Sequence record: OZ035795.1
Source of the DNA: Krischvirus LF73P4
DNA: 64,000 nt
Direction: 5' to 3' (one strand)
Shown here piece after piece: positions 54,693-55,163 of the stretch (positions are counted from its first letter, which is position 1; every line of letters begins with the position of its first letter). The translations under genes and the position numbers were made by a program. The notes beneath the pieces were generated by a model. That model was not told where the DNA came from and ran no database searches. It saw only the letters and a list, made by a program, of their open reading frames with translations.

Positions 54693-55163
54693 TTACAGTT
54701 TGGTCGTCCACTCCAGATCTAGATCTTCGACATACTCATGAGATCGGACAATCTCTAAATCGAACTCTAGGTCAGTGCCAAATTTACGCGCACCAACATC
54801 ATAAGAAAGCGTGATATGCGGTACATATTCAGGATAATCCCACGTCGCGCCTAAAGCAGTGCCTATATCGTGTCTGAATTGCATGTAGTCGCTTTCAAAT
54901 GCCAACACAAGCGCATTAGTACCGGATTGAGTTTCAAACACTTTAAGATGGCATAGAGAGCCTAAAAACTTTTCACCCTCTTCTGGTATAAACGGAACAT
55001 AGACACGAGAATATAAGATAGTGCTATGCAGTTTATCACGAGGAACGGCATTAGGCAGATCGTAGAACTCCTGCAATTTTTCAATGCGGTCTAGTGTATC
55101 CTCAGTGAATTTAACCGCCGCATATGTACCTTTAACGGATTCTCTAAACGGGGTCATAATCAA
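54693..55163 (-). CDS. 57B: 2H-phosphoesterase-like protein at the gene 57B position (Acb1-like)
   Basis: Two H-x-[ST]-x motifs (LHSTILY, PHITLSY); order 57B-57A-1 as in T4. Confidence 0.6.
   Translation of the reverse strand: MIMTPFRESVKGTYAAVKFTEDTLDRIEKLQEFYDLPNAVPRDKLHSTILYSRVYVPFIPEEGEKFLGSLCHLKVFETQSGTNALVLAFESDYMQFRHDIGTALGATWDYPEYVPHITLSYDVGARKFGTDLEFDLEIVRSHEYVEDLDLEWTTKL

Follow-up and report, generated by a model that had tools for sequence, protein, structure and literature searches.

A probable orthologue of the T4 anti-CBASS nuclease Acb1 at the gene 57B position of a Krischvirus coliphage

Acb1 of phage T4, the product of gene 57B, cleaves 3'3'-cGAMP and cAAA, spares cGG and cA4, and works independently of metal (PMC9117128). 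Its HxT/HxT catalytic tetrad is composed of H44, T46, H113, and T115 (Hobbs et al. 2022, PMC9117128), the nucleobases being stacked by Y12, W74, F107, and W147 (PMC9117128). Another residue, E141, contacts the N6 of adenine, and this contact accounts for the requirement that one adenosine or more be part of the substrate; a C-terminal lid has also been described (PMC9117128). All nine further homologues assayed by Hobbs et al. (9/9) cleave 3'3'-cGAMP and cAAA, and the Acb1 of Erwinia phage FBB1 was crystallised with 3'3'-cGAMP, which it turned over (PMC9117128). An RB49-like phage, G2494, was part of the 57-phage lysate screen in the same study (Supplementary Table 1, PMC9117128); the literature that we searched contained no report of an RB49, JSE, or Krischvirus Acb1 having been tested biochemically or genetically. 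Encoding Acb1 can also be a liability: phages that do so are restricted by type II Panoptes, and their escapers carry mutations in acb1 (PMC13577387). For type I Panoptes, deletion of acb1 in T4 was without effect (PMC12657218).

We analysed a stretch of 64,000 nucleotides (hereafter the window), which, judging from its sequence, is from a Krischvirus (RB49/JSE-like) coliphage. The region round the gene of interest is 98-99% identical to GoldenSnicker, FL15, FL04, JSE, and more than 50 other phages. The open reading frame (ORF) is present as listed (54693..55163, minus strand), with a TTG start at 55163 that shares bases with the TGA stop (55162-55160) of gene 57A. Six bases past this TTG, an ATG at 55157 on the same strand lies 7 nt 3' of a GGAGG sequence (55169-55165), and a 465-nt CDS from the equivalent ATG is annotated in JSE, GoldenSnicker, and Delraymugoa. 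Because of the GGAGG spacing and the identical CDS length in relatives, and because the TTG overlaps the 57A stop, we prefer a 154-aa model in which translation more likely starts at ATG 55157 than at TTG 55163 (gene 54693..55157). Motif and residue positions below follow this 154-aa numbering, the 156-aa numbering being that of the TTG start. The coordinates of this gene and of the other features discussed are collected in Table 1.

The initial annotation had proposed a 2H-phosphoesterase-like, Acb1-like protein at the 57B position on the grounds of two H-x-[ST]-x motifs with the spacing of 2H phosphoesterases. The protein indeed contains exactly two such motifs, HSTI (residues 44-47) and HITL (residues 114-117), with their histidines 70 residues apart here versus 69 in T4 Acb1 (H44/H113). 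The two-motif pattern alone is nevertheless weak evidence, because 4.7% of composition-preserving shuffles of the protein also yield two such motifs 50-90 residues apart. It is full-length homology that is decisive for Acb1. The protein matches the Pfam family Anti-CBASS protein Acb1 (PF23474) with 174.3 bits (cut-off 27, E=1.5e-51), residues 11-154 in the 156-aa numbering corresponding to model positions 1-143 of 144. In a search of the PDB, FBB1 Acb1 (7T26/7T27) is the sole significant relative (E=1.9e-43, ~53% identity), with query residues 12-155 of the 156-aa, TTG-start numbering aligned to residues 2-143 of the 144-residue chain. BLASTP against T4 Acb1/gp57B (NP_049750.1, from NC_000866) returns a full-length alignment with 47% identity (E=3e-47), so that the proposed identity was borne out end to end. 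PHROG 755, which carries the label "RNA ligase," is matched at 1e-54, and a scan of NCBIfam offered no model for the Acb1 family. A single-sequence AlphaFold2 model of the protein has a pLDDT of 37.5, too low to be of use; from the ~53% identity over almost all of the solved chain 7T26, we infer that it folds as a compact 2H phosphoesterase with a lid at the C terminus. It is thus highly probable that the gene is the Krischvirus orthologue of T4 Acb1 (gp57B), a compact 2H phosphoesterase predicted to disarm CBASS.

The likeness to T4 Acb1 extends past the histidine motifs to the stacking, adenine-contact, and lid residues. In a three-way alignment of T4, FBB1, and the query, T4 residues Y12, H44, T46, W74, and F107 correspond to Y12, H44, T46, F74, and Y108 here, and H113, T115, E141, and W147 correspond to H114, T116, E144, and W150. 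All nine catalytic and substrate-binding residues of Hobbs et al. 2022 are therefore kept, some as conservative replacements, and the two replaced residues, F74 and Y108, are identical to those of the crystallised FBB1 enzyme. A wider alignment took in nine homologues (31-54% identity, six genera) encoded by phages of Escherichia, Erwinia, Acinetobacter, Morganella, Aeromonas, Vibrio, and Klebsiella. Throughout this alignment there is no variation at the tetrad, Y12, or E144, and just two proteins, those of Pseudotevenvirus and Slopekvirus, have another residue in place of the lid tryptophan; both are longer and carry C-terminal extensions. Relative to both T4 and FBB1 Acb1, the protein has a 2-residue insertion near residues 131-132.

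Most likely, the protein serves to cleave adenosine-containing cyclic di- and trinucleotides on the 3' side of adenosine, independently of metal, by which CBASS would be disarmed. On the model of the T4 and FBB1 enzymes, a U-shaped pocket would bind the cyclic di- or trinucleotide, which Y12, F74, Y108, and W150 would stack; one adenine would be read via glutamate E144, and the C-terminal lid would shut over the ligand. The H44/T46/H114/T116 tetrad would then provide acid-base catalysis independent of metal, the adenosine 2'-OH attacking the 3'-5' bond to give a 2',3'-cyclic phosphate intermediate, and hydrolysis of this intermediate would leave a linear product with a 3'-phosphate. Expressed in the course of infection, Acb1 would clear 3'3'-cGAMP, cUA, cAAA, and cAAG before CBASS effectors are activated, and abortive infection would be averted. 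Enzymatic activity, substrate range, and the anti-CBASS effect in vivo are what we infer by homology.

Alternatively, the protein could be an active enzyme of the Acb1 family with substrates unlike those of T4 Acb1, e.g., after a shift to other cyclic oligonucleotides, and hence with a different immune target. Identity to T4 Acb1 is only 47%, the insertion at ~131-132 and the W74-to-F and F107-to-Y replacements fall in this protein, and the family does vary, as seen in the Slopekvirus and Pseudotevenvirus homologues with their C-terminal extensions and missing lid tryptophan. However, F74 and Y108 are the residues of FBB1 Acb1, an enzyme that turned over 3'3'-cGAMP; E144 and W150 are kept; and the nine diverse homologues of Hobbs et al. 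all cleaved both 3'3'-cGAMP and cAAA. We consequently see only a slim chance of a shifted range. A further candidate is a general RNA-end enzyme of the 2H superfamily (a LigT-like 2'-5' RNA ligase or cyclic phosphodiesterase) with a role in RNA repair or processing, which we judge very improbable. It is the reading conveyed by the "RNA ligase" and "cyclic phosphodiesterase" labels of PHROG 755 and many GenBank records, and there are weak matches to PF13563 (2_5_RNA_ligase2, E=0.0012) and PF02834 (LigT_PEase, E=0.058). These LigT-type matches are under the curated cut-offs (19.4 versus 27 bits for PF13563, 14 versus 23.3 bits for PF02834) and span only ~20-55 residues round the second HxT motif; the match to the Acb1 model, by comparison, is full-length and reaches 174 bits. 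Since they are partial and sub-threshold, we rejected the "RNA ligase" reading. Retention of all the cyclic-nucleotide stacking and adenine-contact residues likewise argues against an RNA-end enzyme, and the label is older than the 2022 characterisation of T4 57B.

The gene differs from those of JSE, GoldenSnicker, and Delraymugoa at 6, 3, and 12 codons, respectively; all differences are synonymous and none is non-synonymous, and therefore acb1 is under purifying selection. An inactive or decaying remnant, retained only through its position between conserved genes, has a probability close to nil: although acb1 is dispensable in T4 and acb1-null phages are known (Bas43 naturally, Bas35 as escapers on type II Panoptes; PMC13577387), the frame here is intact with every catalytic and binding residue present, the 21 codon changes from three relatives are silent, the protein is conserved at 99% or more across records, and the gene has a good ribosome-binding site and a terminator. 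Homologues occur in 1475 phage records, and the protein is 100% identical in phages Skers and Whisky, already in GenBank, and reaches 99% identity or more in 55 records. The gene is thus already known, a routine, catalogued orthologue of a characterised anti-CBASS nuclease.

On its upstream side, the surroundings of the gene are those of T4 57B. Genes 3, 1, 57A, and 57B follow one another on one strand here, in JSE, and in T4, so that the gene stands directly after 57A, as the proposed 57B position demanded, and 57A-like genes are also found upstream at homologue loci, e.g., in Vibrio phage K571. The acb1 stop codon is followed by a terminator-like hairpin, which in RNA folding has a centroid energy of -12.8 kcal/mol (z=-2.8), and by an early promoter of sigma-70 type, the best site of the region. 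Hairpin and promoter together make up one PeSL cassette, the start of the next transcription unit; with this terminator-promoter cassette directly after its stop, 57B thus closes its own unit. The cassette belongs to a dispersed repeat family of ~90 nt (range ~70-120 nt), present in at least 16 copies on the minus strand of the window, in which each unit has a stem-loop, a sigma-70 promoter, a Shine-Dalgarno sequence, and an ATG. PeSL promoter/stem-loop cassettes have been described for RB49 and phi1 (PMC2839356), and the family in the window corresponds to them.

The next unit opens with a 124-aa ORF (54205-54579; PHROG 15253; weak Gp30.7-like match), which together with a 52-aa ORF separates acb1 from dmd, the gene for an antitoxin against RnlA/LsoA-type toxins. 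Together, acb1 and dmd have the look of a small anti-defence cluster. Close by, at 52858-53822 (minus strand), four small ORFs (64-80 aa) encode strongly hydrophobic, membrane-like proteins that fall in no Pfam family.

Table 1. Positions of acb1, its neighbours, and other features in the window
Feature	Position	Strand	Evidence or remark
Block A	1 to ~37698		Delraymugoa: ends 37297 (+)
Block B (holds acb1)	~37609 to 56851		Delraymugoa: ~122.8-141.9 kb (+)
Block C	56743 to 64000		Delraymugoa: 65169 down to 57912 (-), inverted
Joint of blocks A and B	37592-37706		85-nt PeSL, identical at both reference loci
Joint of blocks B and C	56743-56851		~115-bp inverted repeat, 88% identical within Delraymugoa
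acb1 (gene 57B) CDS, 154 aa + TAA stop	54693..55157	-	Pfam, PDB, and T4 57B matches; 465-nt CDS in JSE, GoldenSnicker, Delraymugoa
Shine-Dalgarno GGAGG, 7 nt 5' of ATG 55157, within 57A end	55165..55169		direct sequence reading; minus strand
First catalytic motif, H44-S-T46-I	55017..55028	-	aligns with T4/FBB1 H44, T46; invariant in nine diverse homologues
Second catalytic motif, H114-I-T116-L	54807..54818	-	aligns with T4 H113, T115; invariant in nine diverse homologues
Gene 57A (tail-fibre chaperone); stop 2 nt before acb1 ATG	55160..55420	-	Pfam GP57 27.4 bits, PHROG 1002 E=2.7e-26, JSE annotation
Gene 1 (dNMP kinase), upstream, same orientation	55453..56109	-	Pfam DNMK E=8.1e-68
Gene 3 (tail completion/sheath stabiliser), upstream, same orientation	56125..56715	-	PHROG 45 and Pfam gp19-like, JSE annotation
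Intrinsic-terminator-like hairpin (ACCCCGAAA/TTTCGGGGT) with T7 run, 6 nt 3' of acb1 stop	54659..54686	-	terminator scan
Sigma-70-type early promoter, TTGACA-17-CATAAT (11/12)	54620..54648	-	promoter scan, best site of the region
PeSL-like repeat copies, first set	near 30166, 30412, 32526, 32793, 33142, 33486, 34255, 36061	-	dispersed repeat family
PeSL-like repeat copies, second set	near 37209, 37592, 39963, 41232, 51581, 52341, 52575, 54578	-	dispersed repeat family
dmd (antitoxin), 0.7 kb downstream of acb1	53767-53970	-	PF17587 E=7.6e-16
CYTH-domain ORF, between rnh and dsbA	63033-63632	+	26.9 bits versus cut-off 23.2
RlaP-type nucleotidyltransferase	46204-46902		Pfam scan
Macro-domain gene	43408-43863	-	orthologue of T4 Tk.4, 43% identity

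The initial annotation had further suggested that the phage may carry a broad set of nucleotide-targeting counter-defence genes, with SLOG, CYTH, nucleotidyltransferase, and macro domains. Pfam scans of ~45 neighbouring ORFs for anti-defence genes gave Dmd, two Alt-type ADP-ribosyltransferases, and macro, CYTH, and RlaP-type nucleotidyltransferase domains. These last three members of the suggested set are present, but SLOG is only sub-threshold: no convincing domain was seen in the ~45 ORFs, the only SLOG-like signal being a DprA-like match at 12293-12880 (22.3 bits versus a cut-off of 29.6). The macro domain, which gave the sole match of the NCBIfam scan, aligns there with the DarG antitoxin macrodomain at 53 bits, far under the equivalog cut-off. 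No CYTH gene was noticed at the corresponding place in the T4 regions examined; in phage KMB43, the CYTH ORF is labelled "adenylate cyclase." Across the window, tblastn for T4 Acb2 (Vs.4) and IpI found no match at E<=1e-3, no Acb2 homologue being detected in the syntenic vs/regB region, and among the T4 proteins searched in the same way, orthologues were found of Tk.4 and Vs.6 alone.

Several other ORFs in the window deserve a mention. The two ADP-ribosyltransferase genes are adjacent (26932-27756 and 27835-29886, minus strand), comprising an Alt-like protein of 683 aa and a 274-aa paralogue, both with PF03496. A NUMOD4/HNH homing-endonuclease ORF (46921-47514, minus strand) sits between the RlaP-type nucleotidyltransferase and a Vs.6-like glycyl-radical gene. 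GoldenSnicker lacks the stretch ~46924-47523 at the corresponding place, which is why this stretch suggests a mobile insertion. Three adjacent ORFs at 45350-46182 (minus strand; 111, 86, and 64 aa), which have no Pfam family, have a C-[SA]-H-L-x-x-R-x-W motif in common and resemble tandem paralogues.

On a larger scale, the window is a mosaic of three blocks, and none of the 58 related Krischvirus records is collinear with it. The partners joined in the window are 77-85 kb apart in all 58, and neither joint is spanned by any of them. The joint between blocks A and B lies in a PeSL. At the joint between blocks B and C, there is an inverted repeat, of which one copy lies upstream of gene 3 and the other downstream of gene 35. 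Two successive inversions between the joint repeats recreate the block order of the window. The mosaic is either the outcome of two repeat-mediated inversions or an assembly mis-join, as an alternative walk through an assembly graph would give the same path. Exact-pattern scans of IMG/VR for both joints gave 0 matches, but with a control anchor that met only one Krischvirus contig there, this negative carries little weight. We regard it as unlikely that the acb1-dmd block (~37.6-56.85 kb), flanked by these two recombinogenic repeats, has been moved by two large repeat-mediated inversions in what is otherwise a rigidly collinear T4-type genome. If the joints were true, the "modular shuffling" by PeSLs would apply not to single ORFs alone but also to anti-defence blocks tens of kb in length; even then, there would be nothing out of the ordinary about Acb1 itself. 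The 3-1-57A-57B synteny lies entirely within block B and is unaffected by the joints.

The main gain from this analysis is correct annotation, because many records say "RNA ligase" or "hypothetical protein" for a gene that should read Acb1. An intact acb1 in RB49-like coliphages predicts resistance to CBASS signalling via adenosine-containing cyclic di- and trinucleotides, which is relevant to phage therapy and host range. Conversely, it may bring sensitivity to guard systems that sense the loss of cA3, e.g., type II Panoptes (PMC13577387).

One of the closest described systems is T4 Acb1 (gp57B), with an orthologous position, the same HxT/HxT tetrad, the adenine-contact glutamate, and the lid tryptophan, in 152 aa versus 154 here. 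The protein in the window differs from it by conservative stacking replacements (F for W74, Y for F107), one additional residue around position 80, and two around 131-132. Downstream, the neighbour of 57B in T4 is ipI, whereas here the gene is followed by the PeSL cassette, the 124-aa ORF, a small ORF, and dmd. The closest solved structure is FBB1 Acb1 (7T26 apo, 7T27 with 3'3'-cGAMP), from a phage of another host and genus, the alignment having a single 2-residue gap, where two residues are inserted before the last strands of the protein here. LigT and 2'-5' RNA ligase-type 2H phosphoesterases share the two-HxT/S superfamily signature and a weak local similarity at the second motif, but their substrates are RNA ends or 2',3'-cyclic phosphates, not the cyclic oligonucleotides of immune signalling. 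Apyc1, the AcrIII-1/Crn ring nucleases, Acb2, and Tad1/Tad2 share with Acb1 the strategy of depleting a nucleotide second messenger so that the effector stays off, but are unrelated to it in fold and mechanism: cyclic mononucleotides are the substrates of Apyc1, a Zn-dependent MBL enzyme, cA4 is the target of AcrIII-1, and Acb2 and the Tad proteins sequester their ligands without cleaving them.
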